A stretch of 64,000 nucleotides of DNA, from the NCBI GenBank assembly GCA_041937175.2, contig CP166615.1, positions 2,304,001 through 2,368,000 on the forward strand, read 5' to 3'. How positions within the stretch are numbered: position 1 is the first letter of the stretch; each line of letters begins with the position of its first letter. A model generated the notes under the pieces. It saw only the letters and a program-made list of their open reading frames with translations, was not told the origin of the DNA and made no database searches. This document shows positions 18,360-31,362 of the stretch, in pieces. The DNA comes from Limnothrix sp. BL-A-16. Its GTDB lineage: Bacteria; Cyanobacteriota; Cyanobacteriia; CACIAM-69d. Both the position numbers and the translations under genes were made by a program.

Positions 18360-21116
18360 GTGGGGCTTGTGATGGATTTTGGATCAATTCTGTCGCCCGA
18401 GAAATGGTGGCTGTTGCTGGTGACAGTGCTGTTGGGCATCAACACGGGGGTGATTTTGCCAGCTCAGTATGATTCATCGGCTCCTGCGCCTCGCAAGTGG
18501 TTGATCATTAGCACTTGGCTTTTGAACGGGATTTTGACAGGGTTGGCGGGGCTGTTGTTTTCACAGGAGAAGCCCAATTTTCAGCTTTGCCAAGGCTTGA
18601 CGATCGGGGGTGCGATCGTGGGTGTTGTGACGCTGGCGATCTTTTTTCGGGGCCCCAAGGCTGTAGTGACAGCGCACGATCGCCGATCGGAGTTGTTGGG
18701 GGTGCTGAAGGAGGAGTATGGCCAGCGGGAAACGGGGGCGGTGTTGGGCAAGTCGATCGCCCCTGTGCCCTTGGAGCCGCCGCGATCGATTCCCTTTCTT
18801 GGCAAGTTGTTCGGGTTTGGGCAGGAGCGATCACTATCGGGGCTGGATGACTTGCTCAAAACGTTTGATGAAGCCCAGCGGCAGGTGTTGATTTTGGGGG
18901 AGCCGGGGGCGGGCAAAACTACGCTGCTGGTGGCGTTGGCGAATCGGTTGGTGCAACGGGCGATCGAGGGCGATCGGGAACCGATTCCGGTGATTTTGGA
19001 GTTGTCGGCTTGGCGGGCGGGCGAGTCGCTGCCCGATTGGATTGTGGCGGAGGTGGCGGAGCGCTATCGGCCGCTGCCGGCCGCGCAGGTGGCGAACTGG
19101 CTGGCTACGGGGCAACTGCTGCCGCTGTTGGATGGGTTGGATGAGCTAAAGGATCGCCAGGGCGCGGCGATGGTGGCGATTAATGAGTGGGTGTCGCAGT
19201 CGCAAAAGTTGGCGGGGGTGGTGGTCTGTTGTCGGCGGGCGGAATATGACGCGGCGGTGGCGGCGGGCGACGCGCCTTTGGAAGAGCGGCTCAACAAGCG
19301 AATTGAGTTGCAGCCGTTGGATGAGGCAACGATTCGCACCCATTTACATGACTGCGAGCGGGATTTTTTATGGGAGAAAATTAAGCAAGATCGCGACGGG
19401 TTTCGCAAGTTGGCAGAGTCGCCGTTGTTGTTGGATTTGATGGTGGCGGCCTATGACAAACCGGGAAAATGGCAACGAGAAGCGCCGCGAAATCCTGATG
19501 ATCTAGCAGCCTATTATCTTGATTGTCGAGATCGTCTTTTAGATGATTATTTTGAAGTGCGGTTGCATAGTGTGCCGCATCCCAAATACAAACCAGCAGA
19601 TACGCGCCGTTATTTGGAATGGTTAGCGCGATTGATGCGCGATCGCAACCAAACGGAATTTTTGATTGAGTATATGCAGCCTGATTTGATTGAGGATCTA
19701 AAAGATCTGAAAGGCTATCGAGACTGCTTGGGATTTATAGCTGCAATACCTCTTGCTCTTGGCTCTTGGTTGCTTGGAGTAGTCCTCAATGAAGAATTTT
19801 ACGGACTCGTATTAGGTCTTGGGATTGGATTACAAGTATTTTGCTCGATGGAGATTCTCTATATTAGAATCTCAAAAACAATTTGGTCTGATATATCTCT
19901 GTTATTTCTTAGGGGACGAATCTTTATACTATTTATTTTTCAATCTTTCTTAAAAGGGGAGTTCATAGGAAATTATTTCTTTGCTCCCTTGCTCATCTTA
20001 ACTTTTTGTGGATATTTTTACGTATTATCTAGTGTTTTCAACATCGAAAACCAAAATCATCTTTCATATTTTCTCATATCAATTCCCTTTCTTTTTATAG
20101 TTGCAGTTGTTGCATTAGGTGCAATTCTTGAAAGTAATTCTTTATACTTAAAAAAGATTTCTTATAAAGAAACAAACGAAGGAACAATAGAGTCAAGAAA
20201 AAGTCTTGCTTTACTAACATTTTTATTTTTTCTACTGTTTTTTATAAATCAGTCAATTTCAACTATTTTTCAAAACAAGTTATCTTGGGAGGTGACTTTC
20301 TTTCATGATATTCCAATTGCATGTATTCTCTCAGGCTTAATGGGTTTTTATTACTTTGGTGGAATTCAGATATTTCAGAAAAAATTACTGTTCATATTTT
20401 TAAATAAAGCCAATCATATCCCCATTAACTATGATGATTTTCTTCAATATGCATCAGATAAGTTAAGTCTACTTAAGAAAAGTGGCGCATACTTTCGTTT
20501 CTATCATGAATTACTCAAGATTAATATGGCTAAGTTCAGTTCACCGGCTTGTCAGCTTGAAGCACCAAGAATATCTTTAAAGAGTAAGTTGATTGCTCTT
20601 CTTATTCAATTGATACTGATTTACTTGTTGATTTTCGCCTGCTTGAATATCAATAGTTATTTTGATTCAAGCAATTCATCATTTCTCAACAGTCTTGACC
20701 TAAAGAAAAGTGATATTGTTTTTCGTAATTCTATAATTAACTCAAGATTCAAAGTGCACAAGAACAGTCTAGTTCTAGTTAATTTTATGATCAAAACAGA
20801 GACTAATCACAGTCATTCCAATTTATCAATAGACCTCATTGGAAAAGTTGTTCAATTACCTGGAGATACAATCAATTTAGGTAATAAATACTTGTTTGCC
20901 ATAAACGGAAAGTCCATAAATGAGATTTATAAAGATGCCAAAACCTGGAGTTCACTATGTTTTGATGGAAAACTTAGAGTTCCTCAAGATTCTTACGTCG
21001 TTCTACTTCAGTGGGTAGACGAACCATGGCTGGTCTTAGTTAAAGAGAAAGACATCCAAACAAAAATTCTCTTTCGGATCTACCCGTTCGATCGCTTCGG
21101 GCCGATCGAGCCGTAA
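18360..21116 (+). CDS. Membrane-bound NACHT NTPase with multi-TM region and degenerate C-terminal S26 signal-peptidase-like domain
   Basis: Walker A GEPGAGKT, Walker B LPLLDGLDE, SPLLL helical motif, many TM helices, tail VVQLPGDTI...FRIYPFDRFG. Confidence 0.85.
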   Translation: MGLVMDFGSILSPEKWWLLLVTVLLGINTGVILPAQYDSSAPAPRKWLIISTWLLNGILTGLAGLLFSQEKPNFQLCQGLTIGGAIVGVVTLAIFFRGPKAVVTAHDRRSELLGVLKEEYGQRETGAVLGKSIAPVPLEPPRSIPFLGKLFGFGQERSLSGLDDLLKTFDEAQRQVLILGEPGAGKTTLLVALANRLVQRAIEGDREPIPVILELSAWRAGESLPDWIVAEVAERYRPLPAAQVANWLATGQLLPLLDGLDELKDRQGAAMVAINEWVSQSQKLAGVVVCCRRAEYDAAVAAGDAPLEERLNKRIELQPLDEATIRTHLHDCERDFLWEKIKQDRDGFRKLAESPLLLDLMVAAYDKPGKWQREAPRNPDDLAAYYLDCRDRLLDDYFEVRLHSVPHPKYKPADTRRYLEWLARLMRDRNQTEFLIEYMQPDLIEDLKDLKGYRDCLGFIAAIPLALGSWLLGVVLNEEFYGLVLGLGIGLQVFCSMEILYIRISKTIWSDISLLFLRGRIFILFIFQSFLKGEFIGNYFFAPLLILTFCGYFYVLSSVFNIENQNHLSYFLISIPFLFIVAVVALGAILESNSLYLKKISYKETNEGTIESRKSLALLTFLFFLLFFINQSISTIFQNKLSWEVTFFHDIPIACILSGLMGFYYFGGIQIFQKKLLFIFLNKANHIPINYDDFLQYASDKLSLLKKSGAYFRFYHELLKINMAKFSSPACQLEAPRISLKSKLIALLIQLILIYLLIFACLNINSYFDSSNSSFLNSLDLKKSDIVFRNSIINSRFKVHKNSLVLVNFMIKTETNHSHSNLSIDLIGKVVQLPGDTINLGNKYLFAINGKSINEIYKDAKTWSSLCFDGKLRVPQDSYVVLLQWVDEPWLVLVKEKDIQTKILFRIYPFDRFGPIEP

Positions 21117-23194: not shown

Positions 23195-23617
23195 ATGACC
23201 GCCGCCCTCAGCCCCGCCGATCGCCACAATTACCAAACCCTGCTGGCCGACTATGGCCCCGGTCTGCGGGCGATCGATGCCCTTGATCAACACGATGGCG
23301 ACCTGATCAGCGCCGTCGAAACCCTGTGGAATCAGTCAGAAACTCCCAGCACTTTTGGCAAGGGTCAAAAACTGTGGGAAACCCTGTTAAAAGTCTTGCG
23401 CAAGGAACTCTGTGGCAACGAAGGGGTGCGCGCCCAGTTTCAGGAATACACCAAAAATCCCGGCAGTGCGCCCCTGTTGACGGGCTTGATTGTGTCAGTC
23501 ACCACGGCGGCGGGTTTACCGATCGACCCAGCGATTTCCACAATTGTGGTGTTGTATTTGCTCAAAATCGGTCTGAATGTGTTTTGTGAATACACCGAAC
23601 CCAAACCAGAATCATGA
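23195..23617 (+). CDS. Cyanobacterial hypothetical protein (140 aa) with C-terminal hydrophobic hairpin
   Basis: 3' part of ORF 22805-23617 not overlapping the ABC-F gene; ATG at 23195; stop overlaps the next start (ATGA). Confidence 0.78.
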   Translation: MTAALSPADRHNYQTLLADYGPGLRAIDALDQHDGDLISAVETLWNQSETPSTFGKGQKLWETLLKVLRKELCGNEGVRAQFQEYTKNPGSAPLLTGLIVSVTTAAGLPIDPAISTIVVLYLLKIGLNVFCEYTEPKPES

Positions 23618-23973
23618 TCAGTCCATTACTCATCACTGATTCCATCACCCCCGCAACCTGGGAATTGCGATCGCGCCTGATCTGTCATCGTGAGCAAATC
23701 CAGGCGATCGCCGCTGACTACGGCATTAGTCACATGCGCATTTTCGGTTCCGTGGCCCGAGGAGAAGCAACCGCCGAAAGTGATATCGATTTTTTGGTGG
23801 AGATGGAACCCGATCGCAGTTTGCTCGATCGAATTGGCTGCATTCAGGATCTATCGGACTTGTTAAATTGCCCGATTGATGTTGTCACTCTCAAAAATAT
23901 CCGTGAGGAATGGCGCGATCGCATTCAACACGAGGCAATTTCACTGTGTGAAGTCCAACACGATCAAATTTGA
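23614..23973 (+). CDS. Minimal nucleotidyltransferase (MNT/MntA-like antitoxin family)
   Basis: IFGSVARGEATAESDIDFLV (GSx10DxD), L..LL...IDVV, EAI near the C-terminus. Confidence 0.9.
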   Translation: MISPLLITDSITPATWELRSRLICHREQIQAIAADYGISHMRIFGSVARGEATAESDIDFLVEMEPDRSLLDRIGCIQDLSDLLNCPIDVVTLKNIREEWRDRIQHEAISLCEVQHDQI

Positions 23974-23984
23974 TTTTGCTGGGG

Positions 23985-24350
23985 TTAATCGATCGCGTAG
24001 CCTGTATATTGTCGAACGGTGGGAGCATGGAAAGCGAGAACAATGTGATCTTTCGGAACTCCCAACTCTGTTAACTCATTGGCAATTCCACCTTCAATGC
24101 CATCATAGTGAATCCAGATTTTTTGGTTCCGAATTTCGGCATGAACTAGGCAACCATGCACTCTCTGATTCTCTTCCCAACCTTCTTGCATGAGCAGGAA
24201 ATGATTGCAATCTTGGCTCACCACTAAGTAGGTCACTACATTTCCATAGCGATAGGGCAACTTGGCATAGTCACCGAGAATTTTCTCTAGGAGCGATCGC
24301 CACTGGTTTAGGTTTTGTCCTTCTTGAGTGTCGAATGCTTCCATACTCAT
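23985..24350 (-). CDS. xisI: XisI-family protein
   Basis: GW...RVHGCLVH.EI...KIWIHYDGIEGGIANEL..LGVPKDHIVLAFH.P..RQYTGYA. Confidence 0.92.
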   Translation of the reverse strand: MSMEAFDTQEGQNLNQWRSLLEKILGDYAKLPYRYGNVVTYLVVSQDCNHFLLMQEGWEENQRVHGCLVHAEIRNQKIWIHYDGIEGGIANELTELGVPKDHIVLAFHAPTVRQYTGYAID

Positions 24351-24375
24351 GATTTGATAATAGTTCGGTAGTCCA

Positions 24376-24490
24376 GTAGGTTGGGTTGAGCCTCGCGAAA
24401 CCCAACGCAAGATCTGGGCTATGCGATCAATTACTTTCAAAACATAGCGTATTGATCGTGTTGGGTTTCGCACGGCTCAACCCAACCTAC
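24376..24490. repeat. GTAG-type REP doublet (REPIN-like long inverted repeat)
   Basis: GTAGGTTGGGTTGAGCC..GCGAAACCCAAC (24376-24406) inverted at 24460-24490, ending CCTAC. Confidence 0.8.
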
Positions 24491-24600
24491 TGCTCTCAGT
24501 TAACGGTAGCTTCTGCGATCGCTGGTGGTTGATTTCGACATCCCGATCGCCTTGGTGAGGTTGTTAGGATGGGGCGAGTGATGAACCGATCGCTCCACCT

Positions 24601-27600
24601 ATGCCGACCATTCAGATTCGCGAAGTTGCTGCCGTTGTCGATGGGTTCACTGCTGAGGTGACGATCGCCCAGGATCTCAACACGAGCCGCGCCTATCCCG
24701 TCACGTTGCGGAATCCGTTTCAGCACAACGAAGAAGCGGATCTGGAATTCTTCTTTGAAGAGTGGTATCAGTTCCCGACGCTCGATCGGGAGCGGGCCGA
24801 TCGCGCCCGCCTGGCGATCGCTCAATATGGCCAAGAGCTGTTCGAGCAACTGTTGAAGGCGAATTCCGATGCCTACGCGGACTATCGGGACTTGCGGCGA
24901 TCGCAGGCCTTTGAGCGGGGCACGGTGCTGATCGAAATCATCGGCTCGCCGGAGTTTCAGGGGTGGCATTGGGAAGCCCTGCGCGATCCCGATTTGCCGG
25001 AACCGCTGTCACTGATGACCCCGATCGTCCGGCGCGACCCCCGGCGATCGGTTGCCAATCCGGCGCGGGTTGAGCCGTCTGGCTGGCTGAATTTGTTGGT
25101 GGTGACGGCGCGGCCCGGTTGGAGCCAGGATGTGAACTACCGGACGATTTCCCGGCCGTTGGTGGAGGCGATCGCCAATGCTCAGTTGCCCGTGAAGGTG
25201 GAGCTATTGCGGCCCGGCACTTGGGAAGCGCTCGATCGCCACCTGCAAGATGTCGGGCCGGGGTTCTATCACGCGGTGCATTTCGATTTGCATGGGTCGG
25301 TGCTGACTTACAAAGAAGCTAGCAAACTGCTCGATCGCCCCGCCCAAGCCAGCGGCCAAACCTTTCGGCGCGGTTATGGTTTGGGGGATTTGCCTGAATA
25401 TGACGGCTATCGGGCATTTCTGAGCTTTGAAGGAGAAGCGGCGGGCCAGTCAATTTTGGTGGAAGCGGCGGAGGTGGCAAATCTGCTGAAGACCCGGCAA
25501 ATTCCTCTTTGCATTTTGAATGCTTGCCAGTCTGCCAAGCAGATTAGCGGTGGCGAGGGGCCGGCGGCGGAAACCAGCCTGGGGGCCAAGCTGCTGGAGG
25601 CGGGGATGCAGGCGATCGTGGCCATGCGCTATTCGGTGATGGTGCGGGCGGCGGAACTGATGATGACGCGGTTCTATCAGGCGCTGTTTACCGAGCAGCC
25701 GGTGATGGAGGCGATTCGGTTGGGGCGGCGGGAGCTGTGGCAAACCAAAACCCGCCCCGGCCGGTTCAACATGCCGATCGAGCTGGAGGATTGGCTGTTG
25801 CCGGTGGTCTACAGTGGCGCGACGGTGAATTTGAATTTGCGGCCCCTGACGGCCGACGAAGAGGCGGCCCGGTGGACGGCGGAGGCCGATCGCGATCGCT
25901 TTGAGCCGCCGATCTATGGCTTTGTGGGACGGGACACGGACATTTTGGAGCTGGAGCGGCGGTTGTTGCAGCCCGATCGCAACGCTCTGTTGTTGCAGGG
26001 GATGGGCGGCACGGGCAAAACCACGCTGCTGCGCTATTTGCGCGACTGGTGGCAGCGGACGGGGCTGATTGAGCGATCGTTCTATTTTGGCTATGACGAG
26101 CGGGCCCACAACCTGGAGCAAATCGCCGCCAGCATTTTTCAGCAGCTTGATCCCGAGGGGTGGTTGCGGTTCCAGTCGTTCCCCTTGGCGGCGCGGTTGA
26201 CCAAGCTGACCCAACTGTTGCGATCGCGCCGCTATGCCTTGATTCTGGACAATTTGGAATCGGTGACGGCGGCGGCCCTGTCGATTCCCAACAGCCTGCC
26301 GGAGTCGGAGCAGCGGGCCTTGGCCCAATGGTTGCGCGGGTTGGTGGGGGGCAAAACCCTGATTTTGTTGGGGTCGCGGGGGGCGGAATCCTGGCTGGAG
26401 CCGGTCTATGGAGCCAATCGGCTGGGGTTGCGGGGGTTGGATCGGGATGCCCGCACGGAGCTGGCCCAAAAAATTCTGGAGCGACAGGTGGGCGACTCGC
26501 GCCGCATCGCTCAGATCAAGGATGATCCGGCCTTTGGGCAGTTGATGAAGCTGTTGGATGGCTATCCATTGGCGATGGAGGTGGTGTTGGGGAATCTGAA
26601 GCGCCAAACCCCCAGCGAAATTGTGGCGGGGCTGGCGGCGGCGGATGTGAATCTGGACAATCCGCAGGCCCAGGGCGACAAAACCCAAAGCATCATTGCT
26701 TGCATTGACTATTCCCACGGGGCGCTGTCGGCAGCGGCCCAGCAGGCATTGCTCTGTTTGGCTCCCTTCAGTGGGTTTATTAATTGCGATGGCAATTGCT
26801 TGGAACAGTATGCGGCGCGGTTGGCGGAGCAGCCGGCCTTAGCGGCTTGGTTGGGGGATTCGGGGGCAGAAATTTTGGCGGCGGCGGTGCAGGAGGCGGT
26901 GGATTGGGGGCTGTTGTCGCCGATTTCGCCGGAAGTACCGATCTTACTGACCATTCAGCCGACGTTGCCCTATTTCCTGAAGCTGAAGTTAGCGGAACGG
27001 GACAAAGAAACCCAAGCGGCGATTCGCAATGCCTTTAAGCAGCACTACATCGGCTTGGCGAATTACTACAACAATCGATTGCTGAAATCAAAGGAGCCAG
27101 ATCAGCGGCAATTGGGGATCTTTTTTGTGCGGCAGGAGTATGAAAATTGCTATGCAGCGCTGCAAATTTGCCTAGAGAAATTCGAGACGGCAGATATTTT
27201 CTTTTGCCTATTCCAATATTTGTACGTGACCCAAGATTGGCCGACTGCCAAGGCTTTGGCGGAACAAGTTCGGGCGGCCCATGCCCAATATCCTCCCGAA
27301 ATTCGTCAGGGCAAAATCGGCTTGGAAATTACGATGTCGCTCGATCGCCTGGCCTCTTGCCAATTGGAACTCAAGGACTATGCAGGCGCTCGGGCGGCTT
27401 ATTTGGAAGAACTCCAACAACTCGATCAACTACAAGGCGTTGACCGTCGCCAAATCTTAGCCAGCCAAGCCAGCACCTACCACCAGTTGGGAAGGGTTGC
27501 CCAGGGCTTGCGGGAGTATGCCGAAGCCCGCCGCTGCTACCAACAGGCCCTCGAAATCAAAATCGAGTTCGGCGAGTCTCCAGAGGAGAGGCTTCGCCAA

Positions 27601-28581
27601 CGCTACGAGCAAGCTGGCACCTACCACCAGTTGGGAATCGTTGCCCAGGAATTGCGGGAGTTTGCCGAAGCCCGCCGCTGCTACCAACAGGCCCTCGAAA
27701 TCAAAATCGAGTTCGGCGATCGCTACAGCCAAGCCAGCACCTATGGTCAGTTGGGAAGTGTGGCCCAGGAATTACGGGAGTTTGCCGAAGCCCGCCGCTG
27801 CTACCAACAGGCCCTCGAAATCAAAATCGAGTTCGGCGATCGCTACAGCCAAGCCAGCACCTACCACCAGTTGGGAATCGTCGCCCAGGAATTGCGGGAG
27901 TTTGCCGAAGCCCGCCGCTGCTACCAACAGGCCCTCGAAATCAAAATCGAGTTCGGCGATCGCTACAGCCAAGCCAGCACCTACCACCAGTTGGGAATCG
28001 TCGCCCAGGAATTGCGGGAGTTTGCCGAAGCCCGCCGCTGCTACCAACAGTCCCTCGAAATCAACATCGAGTTTGGCGATCGTTACGAGCAAGCTGACAC
28101 CTACCACCAGTTGGGAATCGTTGCCCAGGAATTGCGGGAGTTTGCCGAAGCCCGCCGCTGCTACCAACAGTCCCTCGAAATCAACATCGAGTTTGGCGAT
28201 CGTTACGAGCAAGCTGACACCTACCACCAGTTGGGAAATATTGCCTATCTACTGCGGGAGTTTGCCGCAGCCCGCCGCTGCTACCAACAGGCCCTCGAAA
28301 TCAACATCGAGTTCGGCGATTCCTATAGCCAAGCCAGCACATTCAATCAGCTAGGGTTGCTGTCTCAAGCAACGGAAAATTTCCCCAAAGCTCTCGATTA
28401 TTTCCTGCAAGCGCTGCAAATTTTTGCCCAATTTGAAGACACCCACCACGCCCAAGTTGTCCTCAGAAACATCGCCAACCTTTACCAACAAACCCAAGAC
28501 CCCAACATCCTCACCGCCGCCGCCGAAATCCTCGGTTGCACCCCCGACGACCTCGCCACCGCCTTCACCCAACAGCCGTAG
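24601..28581 (+). CDS. NLR-like protein: CHAT (caspase-like) protease, STAND/NB-ARC-like NTPase and TPR repeats
   Basis: CHAT dyad VHFDLHG and ILNACQS; Walker A GMGGTGKT; Walker B LILDNLE; GYPLAM; 40-aa TPR array. Confidence 0.92.
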   Translation: MPTIQIREVAAVVDGFTAEVTIAQDLNTSRAYPVTLRNPFQHNEEADLEFFFEEWYQFPTLDRERADRARLAIAQYGQELFEQLLKANSDAYADYRDLRRSQAFERGTVLIEIIGSPEFQGWHWEALRDPDLPEPLSLMTPIVRRDPRRSVANPARVEPSGWLNLLVVTARPGWSQDVNYRTISRPLVEAIANAQLPVKVELLRPGTWEALDRHLQDVGPGFYHAVHFDLHGSVLTYKEASKLLDRPAQASGQTFRRGYGLGDLPEYDGYRAFLSFEGEAAGQSILVEAAEVANLLKTRQIPLCILNACQSAKQISGGEGPAAETSLGAKLLEAGMQAIVAMRYSVMVRAAELMMTRFYQALFTEQPVMEAIRLGRRELWQTKTRPGRFNMPIELEDWLLPVVYSGATVNLNLRPLTADEEAARWTAEADRDRFEPPIYGFVGRDTDILELERRLLQPDRNALLLQGMGGTGKTTLLRYLRDWWQRTGLIERSFYFGYDERAHNLEQIAASIFQQLDPEGWLRFQSFPLAARLTKLTQLLRSRRYALILDNLESVTAAALSIPNSLPESEQRALAQWLRGLVGGKTLILLGSRGAESWLEPVYGANRLGLRGLDRDARTELAQKILERQVGDSRRIAQIKDDPAFGQLMKLLDGYPLAMEVVLGNLKRQTPSEIVAGLAAADVNLDNPQAQGDKTQSIIACIDYSHGALSAAAQQALLCLAPFSGFINCDGNCLEQYAARLAEQPALAAWLGDSGAEILAAAVQEAVDWGLLSPISPEVPILLTIQPTLPYFLKLKLAERDKETQAAIRNAFKQHYIGLANYYNNRLLKSKEPDQRQLGIFFVRQEYENCYAALQICLEKFETADIFFCLFQYLYVTQDWPTAKALAEQVRAAHAQYPPEIRQGKIGLEITMSLDRLASCQLELKDYAGARAAYLEELQQLDQLQGVDRRQILASQASTYHQLGRVAQGLREYAEARRCYQQALEIKIEFGESPEERLRQRYEQAGTYHQLGIVAQELREFAEARRCYQQALEIKIEFGDRYSQASTYGQLGSVAQELREFAEARRCYQQALEIKIEFGDRYSQASTYHQLGIVAQELREFAEARRCYQQALEIKIEFGDRYSQASTYHQLGIVAQELREFAEARRCYQQSLEINIEFGDRYEQADTYHQLGIVAQELREFAEARRCYQQSLEINIEFGDRYEQADTYHQLGNIAYLLREFAAARRCYQQALEINIEFGDSYSQASTFNQLGLLSQATENFPKALDYFLQALQIFAQFEDTHHAQVVLRNIANLYQQTQDPNILTAAAEILGCTPDDLATAFTQQP
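27466..28350 (+). repeat. Intragenic tandem array of 120-bp TPR-coding units (7 full plus 1 partial)
   Basis: Units start at 27466, 27610, 27730, 27850, 27970, 28090, 28210 and 28330; the first is 144 bp because of a 24-nt insert. Confidence 0.97.
27575..27598. mobile_element. 24-nt SDR-like mini-insertion at a HIP1 position
   Basis: GCG-AGTCTCCAGAGGAGAGGCTTCGCC-AACGC stands where sister repeats have GCG-ATCGC; internal TCTCC/GGAGA hairpin. Confidence 0.7.
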
Positions 28582-28638
28582 GGTGCATGGGAGAACACTT
28601 GGCCATTAACAATCCTTTCCCTACACCTCCCATGCACC
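28578..28638. repeat. GTAG-type REP-like palindrome
   Basis: GTAG-GGTGCATGGGAG...CTCCCATGCACC; partial third arm GGTGCGTGGGAG near 28694. Confidence 0.6.
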
Positions 28639-28726
28639 GCAATCGATCGCGCAAAAACAACAATCCTCGATCGATTGAATAACCACAACCCTCGGTGCGT
28701 GGGAGAGCAAATCAACCTTATGGCAA

Positions 28727-29947
28727 TCACGGGCGATCAACCCCAAACCCTTCCGCTTTCAGCATAGCTAAAGTTGCAATTGCTGCTTGGGTTTCTGCTT
28801 CCTTGATGGTCTTCCCTATCCCTTGGCCATACACTCGGTTCTGAAGCTTGACTTCTACAGTCCAAGGCTCCGCCCCTGGAACTGGACAGTAATCTACCAT
28901 GCCATATTTACTTGCATTTTCTGGCTGTTGTAGAAATTCTTGAAGAGCATTTTTAGGATGTCGGGCCGTTGCACCTTCGTAGCCCAGTTTATCGATCACT
29001 TGATCAAGCTTTGGCCAGAAGAATGCCTGAACTGCTGCCAAACCAGAATCAAGATAGTAGGCTCCAATCAATGCCTCAAAGGCATTAGCAAGAACTGAAT
29101 TCTTTTGACTAATTTTCTGATCACGCTTAAGCCCATTTCCTAGTCTCAGACAATCACCCAGATCCAATTGACTCGCAAAAAGCTCGAGTTGCGTATTTTC
29201 CACAATTCGAGATTTAATTTGAGTCAATTCTCCTTCGGTTAGGTACGGGTGTTTATTATGAATATACTCGGCCACTACCAATCCCAAAACGGAATCGCCT
29301 AAAAACTCCAGCCGTTCATTGTCATCGCCACTGCTTGGGTGTTCATTTTTATAAGACCTATGGGTTAAAGCCTGTTTCAGGAGGCTGAGATTCTGGAACG
29401 GAATTTGAGAAATGAGGCGATCGCACTGCTCTTGAAACTGTCGGTCTGCCTGATTGTTAGGGTTTAGACCCCATTGCTGCGCTTGGTTTTGATGACTCAA
29501 GGCTAGCAAAGCTTCATTTTGCTGGGTGACTACCTCTTCCAATAGAGGCGATCCGATCGCCTGTAGTAACCGACGAATGCTATCGAGCGATCGATAAACA
29601 TCTGCGGTGGGAAATTCTGATTCATGGGCCCACTGGTTACGAATTTCCTGAAGTTCATTGACTAGAACTTTGTCGCTTTTGCTTAATCGGTCTTTAAAGA
29701 CCTTGGTGTAATGCTTATCTAGAATTGTTAGTAAATTGGCTACATCTTCACTAATGATTTTGATGGGAGAATACTTTTTTAAAATTGGCTGGGCTGTTCG
29801 TAGCTTGGGTAAGAAATGTAGGGATTTTGTAGCCCAATCATCCCCATATTCTGTCTGCATGGCTTCCTGAATGAAAGGAAACAATCCCTGGCGCAAAAGC
29901 TCTAGGCCACGGGTAATCGTTTCCTTTCCCCAGTTTTGGTTTGACAT
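28727..29947 (-). CDS. Swt1-like HEPN domain fused to ribonuclease III and a dsRBD
   Basis: ELQEIRNQWAH (Rx4H), ALTHRSY, NERLEFLGD, ANAFEALIGA, dsRBD HPKNALQE...G.GKTIKEAETQAA. Confidence 0.88.
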   Translation of the reverse strand: MSNQNWGKETITRGLELLRQGLFPFIQEAMQTEYGDDWATKSLHFLPKLRTAQPILKKYSPIKIISEDVANLLTILDKHYTKVFKDRLSKSDKVLVNELQEIRNQWAHESEFPTADVYRSLDSIRRLLQAIGSPLLEEVVTQQNEALLALSHQNQAQQWGLNPNNQADRQFQEQCDRLISQIPFQNLSLLKQALTHRSYKNEHPSSGDDNERLEFLGDSVLGLVVAEYIHNKHPYLTEGELTQIKSRIVENTQLELFASQLDLGDCLRLGNGLKRDQKISQKNSVLANAFEALIGAYYLDSGLAAVQAFFWPKLDQVIDKLGYEGATARHPKNALQEFLQQPENASKYGMVDYCPVPGAEPWTVEVKLQNRVYGQGIGKTIKEAETQAAIATLAMLKAEGFGVDRP

Positions 29948-30005
29948 GATGTGAATTCACAATGACTAATTTCATGGTAGTCAGCAATTCACATTTCGTG
30001 GGAAC

Positions 30006-31142
30006 CTAGCGGCGACGATCGCCCCCAAATCGTCCAACTCGGCCGGTGGGTTTGCCCAGGTTGGCGCGGAGTTGGCCACAGGCTGCATCCGACTCCAGGC
30101 CCCGGGTGCGGCGGACACTGACGGCGACGCGGCGATCGTCCAGGGTTTGCATGAAGTCCCGCACGCGCATCGGGTCAGGGCGCTGGTAGTCTACCTCCGC
30201 GATCGGGTTGTAGGGAATCAGGTTGACGTGAGCTTGGAACCCGCGCAGCAACTCCGCTAGCTCGGCGGCACAGTCGCGGCTGTCGTTGACCCCCGCCAAC
30301 AGGATGTATTCAAAGGTGACGCGGCGGCCGGTTTCGGCGGCATAGTCGCGGCAGTCCTCGATCAGCTCCTCGATCGGGTATTGGGCGGCGCTGGGAACGA
30401 TCGACTCACGGATTTCCTGGTTGGGCGCGTGGAGGCTGACAGCCAGGGTGGCTTGCAACCGTTCGTTGGCGAGCTGCCGAATCCGGCCGGGAATACCGAC
30501 AGTGGAAATGGTGATGTAGCGCTTGCCGATGCCGATGTCTTGGTTGAGCGATCGCGTTGCACTCAGGACGGCGGCGGGGTTATGTAGCGGTTCGCCCATG
30601 CCCATAAACACCACATTGCTGACCCGGCGATCGAAGTCCTCTTGGACAGTCAGCACCTGATCCAAAATTTCCGATCGCGATAGGTTGCGCACAAAGCCGC
30701 CTTTGCCCGTGGCGCAAAAGTCGCAGGCCATGGCACAGCCCACTTGGGAGGACACACAAACCGTCAGCCGATCGCGGGTGGGAATGCCGACGGTTTCCAC
30801 GATCTGCCCGTCGGCCATTTTCAGCAGAAATTTTACGGTTCCGTCATGGCTCTCGGAGCGGTGGTGCAGCTCGGAGCGGCCGATCGGAATGTCGGCGGCC
30901 GCTTCCCGCCAGTTTTTGGGGAAAACGGTGATATCCATCAGCGATCGGGCCCCGCGTTCGTAGATCCATTGGTGGAGCTGCTTGGCACGGTAGGCGGGCT
31001 GTCCCTGGTCTTTCACCCATTGGGTGAGTTCCGTGAGGGAGCCACCCAACAGCGGCGGCAGGGGCTGACGATCGGGACGGGACTGCAAAATCTGCGAATC
31101 GGTTTGGGCAGCGGTGTTCAGGGCGATTGGGGCGGGAGCCAT
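30006..31142 (-). CDS. rlmN: 23S rRNA A2503/tRNA A37 C2-methyltransferase (radical SAM)
   Basis: [22 protein letters not shown] and AACGQL motifs. Confidence 0.97.
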
Positions 31143-31362
31143 GGTCAAGTCTCAAGACAAAGGGCCGAACAAACCCCAAGACACCATCGCCACCAGCCAA
31201 GCGGGCGATCGGGCATGGGATTTGGGAATTAGGCGGATCAACGGCGGGCGATCGTGAAGCGATTCAGTAGTCGATTAGGGGTCGATCGAAGCCTGTATTA
31301 GCTTAGATCGTAGCGACTCTGATCGATGATTGCCCCGTTGTTTGTTTCTTGCCCGTCTCTCC

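Follow-up and report, generated by a model that had tools for sequence, protein, structure and literature searches.

The window, by which we mean the whole stretch of 64,000 nucleotides that was analysed, carries a gene on its reverse strand (positions 28727 to 29947) that joins a Swt1-like HEPN domain to a complete RNase III with a dsRBD. The best explanation for this gene, to which we assign a probability of only about 0.42, is that it codes for a mobile accessory ribonuclease with two heads, both of which would be active against duplex-containing RNA. On the evidence of gene and genome comparisons, it is established that both catalytic motifs are kept, that the gene is an extra copy, and that the slot it occupies can be swapped. 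The relevant features are as follows.

28727..29947, minus strand: HEPN_Swt1-RNase III-dsRBD fusion gene (P0001), 406 aa (ORF plus Pfam and TIGRFAM profile matches)
29552..29911, minus strand: Swt1-like HEPN domain, residues 13-132 (PF18731, E 1e-30; model and fold match to 4pqz)
29624..29641, minus strand: Rx4H motif RNQWAH, R103-H108 (invariant residues across 22 fusion genes)
29402..29551, minus strand: helix 136-158 and then a poorly ordered linker, residues 133-182 (alignment; pLDDT below 50 at 158-164)
29018..29401, minus strand: RNase III catalytic domain, residues 183-310 (PF14622, PF00636, TIGR02191; VIA match to 3o2r)
29294..29317, minus strand: signature ERLEFLGD, E211-D218 (sequence and alignment)
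29075..29086, minus strand: N288-A-F-E291, with N equivalent to E. coli D114 and E to E117 (alignment)
28760..28957, minus strand: dsRBD, residues 331-396, of which 342-386 are dimorphic among close relatives (PF00035; relatives compared)
29948..30005, no strand: 58-bp spacer, common to the same-genus genome G001; similarity to the same-genus genome G002 stops at the rlmN stop codon (genome comparison)
30006..31148, minus strand: rlmN, the core gene ahead of the variable slot (TIGR00048)

The earlier note on this DNA, made from its letters alone, had read the 406-aa ORF as an N-terminal Swt1-like HEPN domain followed by RNase III and a dsRBD, and the profile searches bear this out. The HEPN_Swt1 profile PF18731 is matched from end to end (1-115 of 115) with 106.8 bits against a cut-off of 27.5, the RNase III profile PF14622 matches residues 188-310 (E 2.6e-33), and the dsRBD profile dsrm (PF00035) matches residues 331-396 (E 1.6e-9; 38.7 bits against a cut-off of 23). 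The motifs RNQWAH, ERLEFLGD and ANAFEA also lie where they had been placed, at R103-H108, E211-D218 and N288. When modelled alone, the N-terminal domain adopts an all-helical HEPN fold (pLDDT 89.5, pTM 0.84). Foldseek places 4pqz, the C-terminal domain of yeast Swt1, at the top, with a probability of 0.92 but an E value of 0.21, and VIA-align ranks the same structure first (Z 9.1, rmsd 3.1, 125 aligned), with unrelated helical bundles within 1 Z. The HEPN assignment is carried by the Pfam score, and the fold search agrees with it. The RNase III domain model matches 3o2r (VIA Z 20.2, rmsd 1.7, 141 aligned) and the dsRBD is modelled as a helix, three strands and a helix. The full-chain model has a pTM of 0.47 and no fixed arrangement of HEPN and RNase III, with residues 158-164 below a pLDDT of 50. 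The helix at residues 136-158 is also found, by alignment, after the HEPN domain of fusions that do not include RNase III.

The earlier note had proposed that the genome be searched for a separate rnc, and the search recovered two full-length RNase III genes plus a mini-III, which is the set described for model cyanobacteria in the available portions of PMC10989914 and PMC5829567. With the fusion, the genome of the window (G000) has four PF00636 genes, one of which is mini-III-sized. A gap of 58 bp separates the fusion gene from the upstream rlmN, which has the same orientation, and the fusion gene is indeed more AT-rich than this neighbor (GC 0.445 versus 0.626), as had been remarked. Its GC3 of 0.405 corresponds to the 3.1 percentile among 1590 long ORFs. 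The same-genus genome G001 carries the fusion behind rlmN, whereas the same-genus genome G002 does not, and it was also not found in G003. Because three other RNase III genes are present, G002 lacks the fusion, and the composition is atypical, we conclude on these genomic grounds that the gene is not the housekeeping rnc of this genome, which agrees with the earlier proposal of an accessory nuclease. It is neither core in close relatives nor typical in composition, and it was apparently imported.

That the gene nonetheless codes for the vertically inherited RNase III that processes rRNA in this genome is most improbable. The protein passes the TIGR02191 equivalog cut-off (199.6 versus 166.25) and the gene sits behind one for an rRNA/tRNA methyltransferase, both of which would suit such a role. 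However, the mini-III and the two full-length enzymes are at hand in G000, and G002 and G003 keep those three genes without the fusion.

Comparison with G002 also characterizes the slot. This genome matches both flanks at 90-94%, and divergence starts at the rlmN stop codon. The slot in G002 holds a gene for a 394-aa AAA_15/AAA_21 ATPase (L039:211-1395), which matches the PADLOC candidate PDC-M38A with an E value of 1.4e-72, and the partner gene downstream is cut by a contig end (L182:1-353). Since this ATPase pair stands between common flanks, the fusion is a one-gene occupant of a variable slot behind rlmN. The 3' flanks of the fusion in G000 and G001 are unrelated. In the PADLOC 2.0 library of 2023, no family was matched by P0001 at an E value of 0.1 or by P0138 at 0.001.

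Several elements in and around the gene deserve mention. A 140-bp intergenic repeat downstream of the fusion (window 28577-28720) is dispersed, with 6 BLAST matches in the genome. The possibility that this element is an antitoxin RNA was rejected, as it is a dispersed repeat that is unlinked to the gene in G001. An Rfam search for an antitoxin RNA near the gene gave three matches, all in adjacent TPR repeats and far below threshold, and no match to a sigma-70-type promoter or a terminator was found at the fusion gene. Contigs from RNA run X2 span most of the gene, but such contigs cannot show transcription, and DNA may also have been in the sample. Runs X6, X7 and X13 contain only short pieces of it.

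The window also codes for a 1326-aa CHAT-NB-ARC/NACHT-TPR protein with near-identical 40-aa repeats (24601-28581, plus strand), which G002 matches except for part of the repeat tract, and for a NACHT protein of 918 aa that has membrane segments and, at its C-terminus, a weak match to signal peptidase S26 (18360-21116, plus strand; 28-32% GC in its 3' part). A minimal nucleotidyltransferase stands beside XisI (23614-23973, plus strand, and 23985-24473, minus strand), with no evident HEPN partner. It is 4.7 kb from the fusion, and is also present in G002, which lacks the fusion. Finally, a long palindrome at 24365-24495, with a predicted fold of about -75 kcal/mol, is dispersed and has 19 BLAST matches in the genome.

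Matches to PF18731 are present in 50 of the 401 genomes of the phylum, and the fusion is present in 21 of the 401, including G000. We examined 30 regions around PF18731 matches, mainly those with open frames near 400 aa; most frames of ~1100 aa and matches below the cut-off were left out. Of the 80 loci recovered by a search with the full-length alignment, only 1 was a fusion and ordinary RNase III made up the bulk. A word-index protein search gave six fusion clusters among the best 120, and the remainder came from HMMER library and genome searches. The ESM Atlas has a 57-member cluster with the same domains, and Limnothrix is the source of named homologues that share 87% identity. At least four PF00636 matches occur in 18 of the 23 fusion-bearing genomes, and thus the fusion is an extra copy there. 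Four others have three such matches, where the fusion is the second paralog itself. Genome G224 has two, and in its fusion (L156:6413-7399) most of the RNase III core is absent, in frame, between the HEPN domain and the dsRBD, both of which are kept. This might represent decay, an assembly error or a true HEPN-dsRBD protein.

No neighbor gene is shared across 22 fusion loci. Core genes there are mixed with Uma2, XisH/I, DUF29, nucleotidyltransferase, HNH and DarT-UvrD genes and a HEC-01-like pair, core genes being as common as conflict genes, and the fusions are mostly AT-richer than their flanks. In family f28 (L157, L158, L162, L168, L169), a plain rnc follows within ~50 bp downstream of the fusion. 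Its product belongs to a different RNase III subgroup and keeps Asp at the D114 position. Close relatives of the HEPN domain lead ~1100-aa frames, ParA-like proteins and NACHT proteins. The phage collection yielded 13 records, all for the RNase III part only and none covering 80% of the query. Among plasmids, 51 records match the HEPN part, and the 20 matches listed are annotated as Swt1-HEPN, DUF499 or hypothetical.

Related architectures were also encountered. Fusion-bearing genomes contain further long RNase III-domain frames of 411, 595 and ~345 aa, some with two matches (G086:C40:74431-74697; G161:C2, G328:C107, G044:C27, G364:C85, G228:C127). P0233 is a TIR-RNase III-dsRBD protein, and Swt1-HEPN domains joined to ParA-like, dynamin-like or NACHT domains were seen as well (loci for these fusions, with P0233: L166:6119-7480, L179, L180, L172).

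In a tree of 157 rows, the RNase III domains of the fusions group with the second cyanobacterial paralog and away from the L004 clade. A single origin for these RNase III halves was rejected, as they do not form one clade and at least 3 changes are forced. The HEPN halves may have one origin (1 change, support 66/81), placed beside the ~1100-aa proteins. We name no donor because the lineage of the window is a long branch in both the RNase III and the HEPN trees.

The second paralog is best followed in family f31, judged to be heterocyst-forming because its clade includes the named loci L042 and L095, where it is present in 119 of 121 genomes. We examined 93 of the 123 matches in this family, including every long frame; the other 30 are all frames of 270 aa or less. 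The 93 matches comprise 17 that are HEPN-fused (16 resident and 1 of the extra type), 32 with an NYN gene upstream and 44 with neither. The resident second rnc is therefore HEPN-fused in 16 of the 119 genomes. An NYN (LabA-like) gene lies directly upstream on the same strand in 32 of the 76 unfused loci, two of these being fragments, and in none of the 15 assessable loci with a resident HEPN fusion, although kin within f31 are not independent in these counts. Common downstream genes mark the same locus in many of the HEPN and NYN cases, and the two states are interleaved on the f31 tree, including sisters within one genus (L216/L217; L213 beside L218/L228). NYN genes beside the second RNase III can be seen at L095:7355-7900, at L021 and at f31 loci within L211-L300, and NYN-RNase III fusions also exist (P0153, P0157, P0207). 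No paper on a link between NYN and RNase III was found in the literature searched, as far as its available text extends.

The slot upstream of the second rnc also holds genes for HNH (6), Uma2 (5), PIN (1) and Mrr (1) proteins, as judged from 32 of the 44 upstream genes. At L229, L265, L274, L282, L289 and L300 and at L168 and L169, the gene directly upstream of the second RNase III or the fusion, in the same orientation, is a small HNH gene (~80-95 aa). In G000 itself, an NYN-like gene (G000:C1:1121185-1121610) lies downstream of the L004 RNase III at a distance of ~1.7 kb, and a gene on the opposite strand separates the two; this placement may be chance.

These patterns bear on a different role for the protein, as an accessory RNA-turnover enzyme with no part in defence. 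Here, a second-paralog RNase III would carry a single-strand RNase head that finishes its own antisense or stem-loop substrates. The placement of the fusions with the second paralog group, apart from the L004 clade, is consistent with this role, as is the pairing of two unrelated single-strand RNase folds, HEPN and NYN, with the same enzyme but never both (15 assessable loci). Furthermore, the fusion may be co-transcribed with rlmN across the 58-bp gap. We nevertheless find this role somewhat unlikely. The scattered distribution of the fusion, its varying loci and low GC3, and its exchange for a candidate defence pair are a better fit to conflict genes, and the upstream slot, given its other occupants, may be no more than a place where small nuclease genes tend to insert.

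The preferred model, a two-headed accessory ribonuclease, requires that both heads be competent. For RNase III, the class I acids E211, E214, D218, E238 and E291 are all present, equivalent to E38, E41, D45, E65 and E117 in E. coli numbering, which was derived from motif spacing and an alignment with the Thermotoga enzyme. The equivalents of E41, D45, E65 and E117 are invariant in all 34 fusion rows of the alignment. The sixth position lacks the Asp of the D114 site, with N288 standing where Thermotoga RNase III has D. The earlier note had singled out this change as unusual, but it is the family norm: among the 34 fusions, 25 have N here, 5 have S, 3 keep D and 1 has A. Of the 42 unfused cyanobacterial rows, 28 likewise have a residue other than D, often S or N. 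Drosha, too, carries N at the equivalent site of its first RNase III domain. In the available text of a mutational scan of E. coli rnc, tolerance is low at all six acids ‘except for D114’, and D114G gave 48% gel cleavage versus 69% for wild type (PMC10037077). Because this position tolerates mutation in E. coli, Asn288 was rejected as the mark of a dead RNase III, and the change is probably harmless in the fusion.

For the HEPN domain, the motif R103-N-Q-W-A-H108 is located at the end of helix 90-108 in the sequence and model, and R103, N104, W106, A107 and H108 are invariant in 22 fusion genes. A first count gave Rx4H in 34 of 34 fusions, and it was overturned by deeper sampling of family f31. 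The motif is intact in all 30 rows of extra-copy fusions, the type to which this gene belongs (29 rows of the 34-row alignment plus L248), although several rows are close kin and so do not represent 30 independent cases. The most distant members are ~35-40% identical, and mean conservation of HEPN columns is 0.65. Among the 16 resident-type fusions of f31, R or H has been lost in 8, of which 7 fall in one clade, representing perhaps two events. The dN/dS ratio for HEPN is 0.13 between G000 and G001; it could be computed for 12 of 13 pairs, in which it spans 0.09-0.32. These values indicate that the HEPN domain of this lineage is under constraint and not decaying, although neither a dN/dS below 1 nor an invariant motif demonstrates catalysis.

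The losses suggest that a HEPN head can persist without catalysis, and the head of this protein might likewise be a non-catalytic dimerisation or RNA-binding module on a spare RNase III, comparable to eukaryotic Swt1 or the N-domains of yeast RNase III. In the 8 resident-type fusions that lack R or H, the domain is still in frame. The HEPN domain of eukaryotic Swt1 is called inactive in the portion of PMC3710099 that was available, and the literature searched yielded, to the extent of its available text, no study that directly assays a Swt1-type HEPN from bacteria. Even so, an inert head seems quite unlikely for this gene, since all 30 rows of its type retain the motif despite their sequence divergence. 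The earlier note had named a resident enzyme with an inert N-domain as the case that would overturn its reading. That description fits half of the resident-type f31 fusions and does not fit the gene in the window.

Among 22 close relatives, residues 342-386 of the dsRBD exist in two forms, 11 of each, that are only 47-56% identical. In several relatives with the alternative form, all regions outside this segment are 88-100% identical. For example, P0130 and P0001 are 98-100% identical over residues 1-341 and 51% identical in the dimorphic segment. The second form is also present in one contig of RNA run X2. Both forms lack the loop G-x-x-H and the K-K-x-A-E patterns, which we take to be the dsRBD patterns usual for RNA contact. 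K-K-x-A-E is retained in 25 of 34 fusions, and most other fusions keep both patterns. Exchange of an RNA-facing segment suggests selection on the recognised target or escape from an inhibitor. A duller reading is that this is a relaxed domain that binds weakly.

RNase III enzymes are homodimers whose dsRBDs bind duplex RNA and whose cleavage uses Mg2+. The active site of HEPN RNases is metal-independent and is formed jointly by two Rx4H motifs. In the preferred model, the RNase III dimer would keep its two N-terminal HEPN domains close to each other through a flexible tether. RNase III would cut the duplex and the HEPN pair would cut nearby single-stranded RNA, and the resulting breaks might be several, differ in their end chemistry and be difficult to repair. 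Likely targets would be duplex-containing RNAs such as antisense pairs or the long stems of phages, plasmids and other mobile elements, and a foreign target is suggested by the mobility of the gene, the slot exchange and the relatives of its HEPN domain. If activity is confined to RNA that the enzyme has bound, the lack of an accompanying antitoxin gene would be accounted for. This model is favored by the retained motifs and constraint of both heads, the extra-copy status, the patchy distribution (21 of 401), the differing neighborhoods, the candidate-defence ATPase in the G002 slot, the two dsRBD forms, and the fact that a plain cyanobacterial RNase III (A2542) already cuts an antisense duplex. 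The absence of a PADLOC model, the core neighbors, the missing dsRBD contact patterns, the motif losses among resident f31 fusions and the full-chain pTM of 0.47 count against it, which keeps it tentative.

The same features might instead describe a dsRNA-gated abortive-infection toxin, a reading in line with the earlier note. RNase III and the dsRBD would then serve mainly as a sensor, and long dsRNA produced during infection would, once bound, align the HEPN pair to cut host tRNA or mRNA in trans and cause arrest. No conserved adjacent antitoxin gene or RNA, as in the HEPN-MNT and AbiF-ncRNA toxin-antitoxin systems, accompanies the fusion, so control of a toxin would have to be internal. Swapping of dsRBD alleles is expected of a sensor under counter-selection, and Rx4H has been lost only on the resident enzyme, which would make sense if activation by the duplexes of a healthy cell carried a cost. 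The G224 protein, with its HEPN domain and dsRBD and little RNase III core, would also be consistent with a sensor-toxin, and the HEPN toxin AbiF is among the fold matches of the N-domain (8vz6; Z 7.5, rmsd 3.8, 150 aligned). However, retention of the RNase III catalytic residues in 34 of 34 fusions means that the ligand would be destroyed while being sensed, and eight resident-type enzymes with intact Rx4H presumably meet host duplexes constantly. Moreover, G224 is a single case that may reflect decay, and the Z score for 8vz6 lies inside the range of unrelated helical bundles. We therefore regard a toxin of this kind as unlikely.

A broader proposal, which is also unlikely, would combine some of these elements: the protein might be a single-chain dsRNA sensor-effector whose RNase III-dsRBD half detects infection-derived duplexes and turns on the HEPN pair to arrest the cell, with an RNA-facing segment that is exchanged between strains, and the second cyanobacterial RNase III might be a platform with an exchangeable single-strand RNase partner, either HEPN or NYN. 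If dsRNA does switch on HEPN, the protein would be a one-protein bacterial counterpart of dsRNA-triggered RNA destruction. If it does not, the gene remains relevant to the question of why cyanobacteria maintain more than one or two RNase III genes. In either case, one ORF with two separately mutable active sites is a convenient test case for a design proposed in 2013. Nature also supplies variants whose HEPN motif is dead, one that lacks most of the RNase III core, and two dsRBD alleles on otherwise near-identical proteins.

The fusion in itself is thus no surprise. In the available part of their study, Anantharaman et al. (2013) list the Swt1-like HEPN with ‘RNASEIII and DSRBD (Cyanobacteria), active’, and name the architecture a ‘two-headed RNase’ that likely makes several cuts on dsRNA with both of its heads, with gi 119489560 of Lyngbya as the example (PMC3710099). 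The gene described here has the same three domains in the same order and phylum with an intact motif, a match made by architecture and not by alignment. As available, the 2013 account is a one-paragraph prediction without the split between extra-copy and resident fusions, the motif loss, the NYN alternation or the dsRBD dimorphism, although this lineage or the motif losses may already appear in its complete additional file. Relative to the literature searched, which was available in part, the slot exchange behind rlmN, the alternation of HEPN and NYN at the second rnc, the dimorphism of the dsRBD core and the retention of Rx4H in extra copies versus its frequent loss on the resident gene were not found. 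No experimental study of a HEPN-RNase III fusion was found in the same literature, with most subscription journals outside it.

Other known systems share parts of this architecture. The DUF499 ATPases (Ava_2192 family; Type-1 BREX-related or Hma) have the same HEPN family and following helix, and the HEPN domain of the fusion is ~35-41% identical to the N-termini of ~1100-aa frames. The available text of PMC12839542 proposes the DUF499 form as an effector of BREX-related systems. In those systems, HEPN heads an ATPase in a methylase-helicase operon, whereas here it heads RNase III and the gene stands alone. The HEPN toxins of the AbiF/AbiD type have a related fold, with Abi2 and Swt1 grouped together in the available part of PMC3710099. 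AbiF is held by a non-coding RNA, according to the title of 8vz6, whereas none was found beside the fusion gene by Rfam search and flank comparison. The full-length cyanobacterial paralogs A0061 and A2542 of Synechococcus PCC 7002 likewise consist of a complete RNase III and dsRBD. As reported in the available text of PMC5829567, A2542 is a plain cyanobacterial RNase III that cuts a plasmid antisense duplex. The fusion differs from both enzymes in being an extra copy with a HEPN head.
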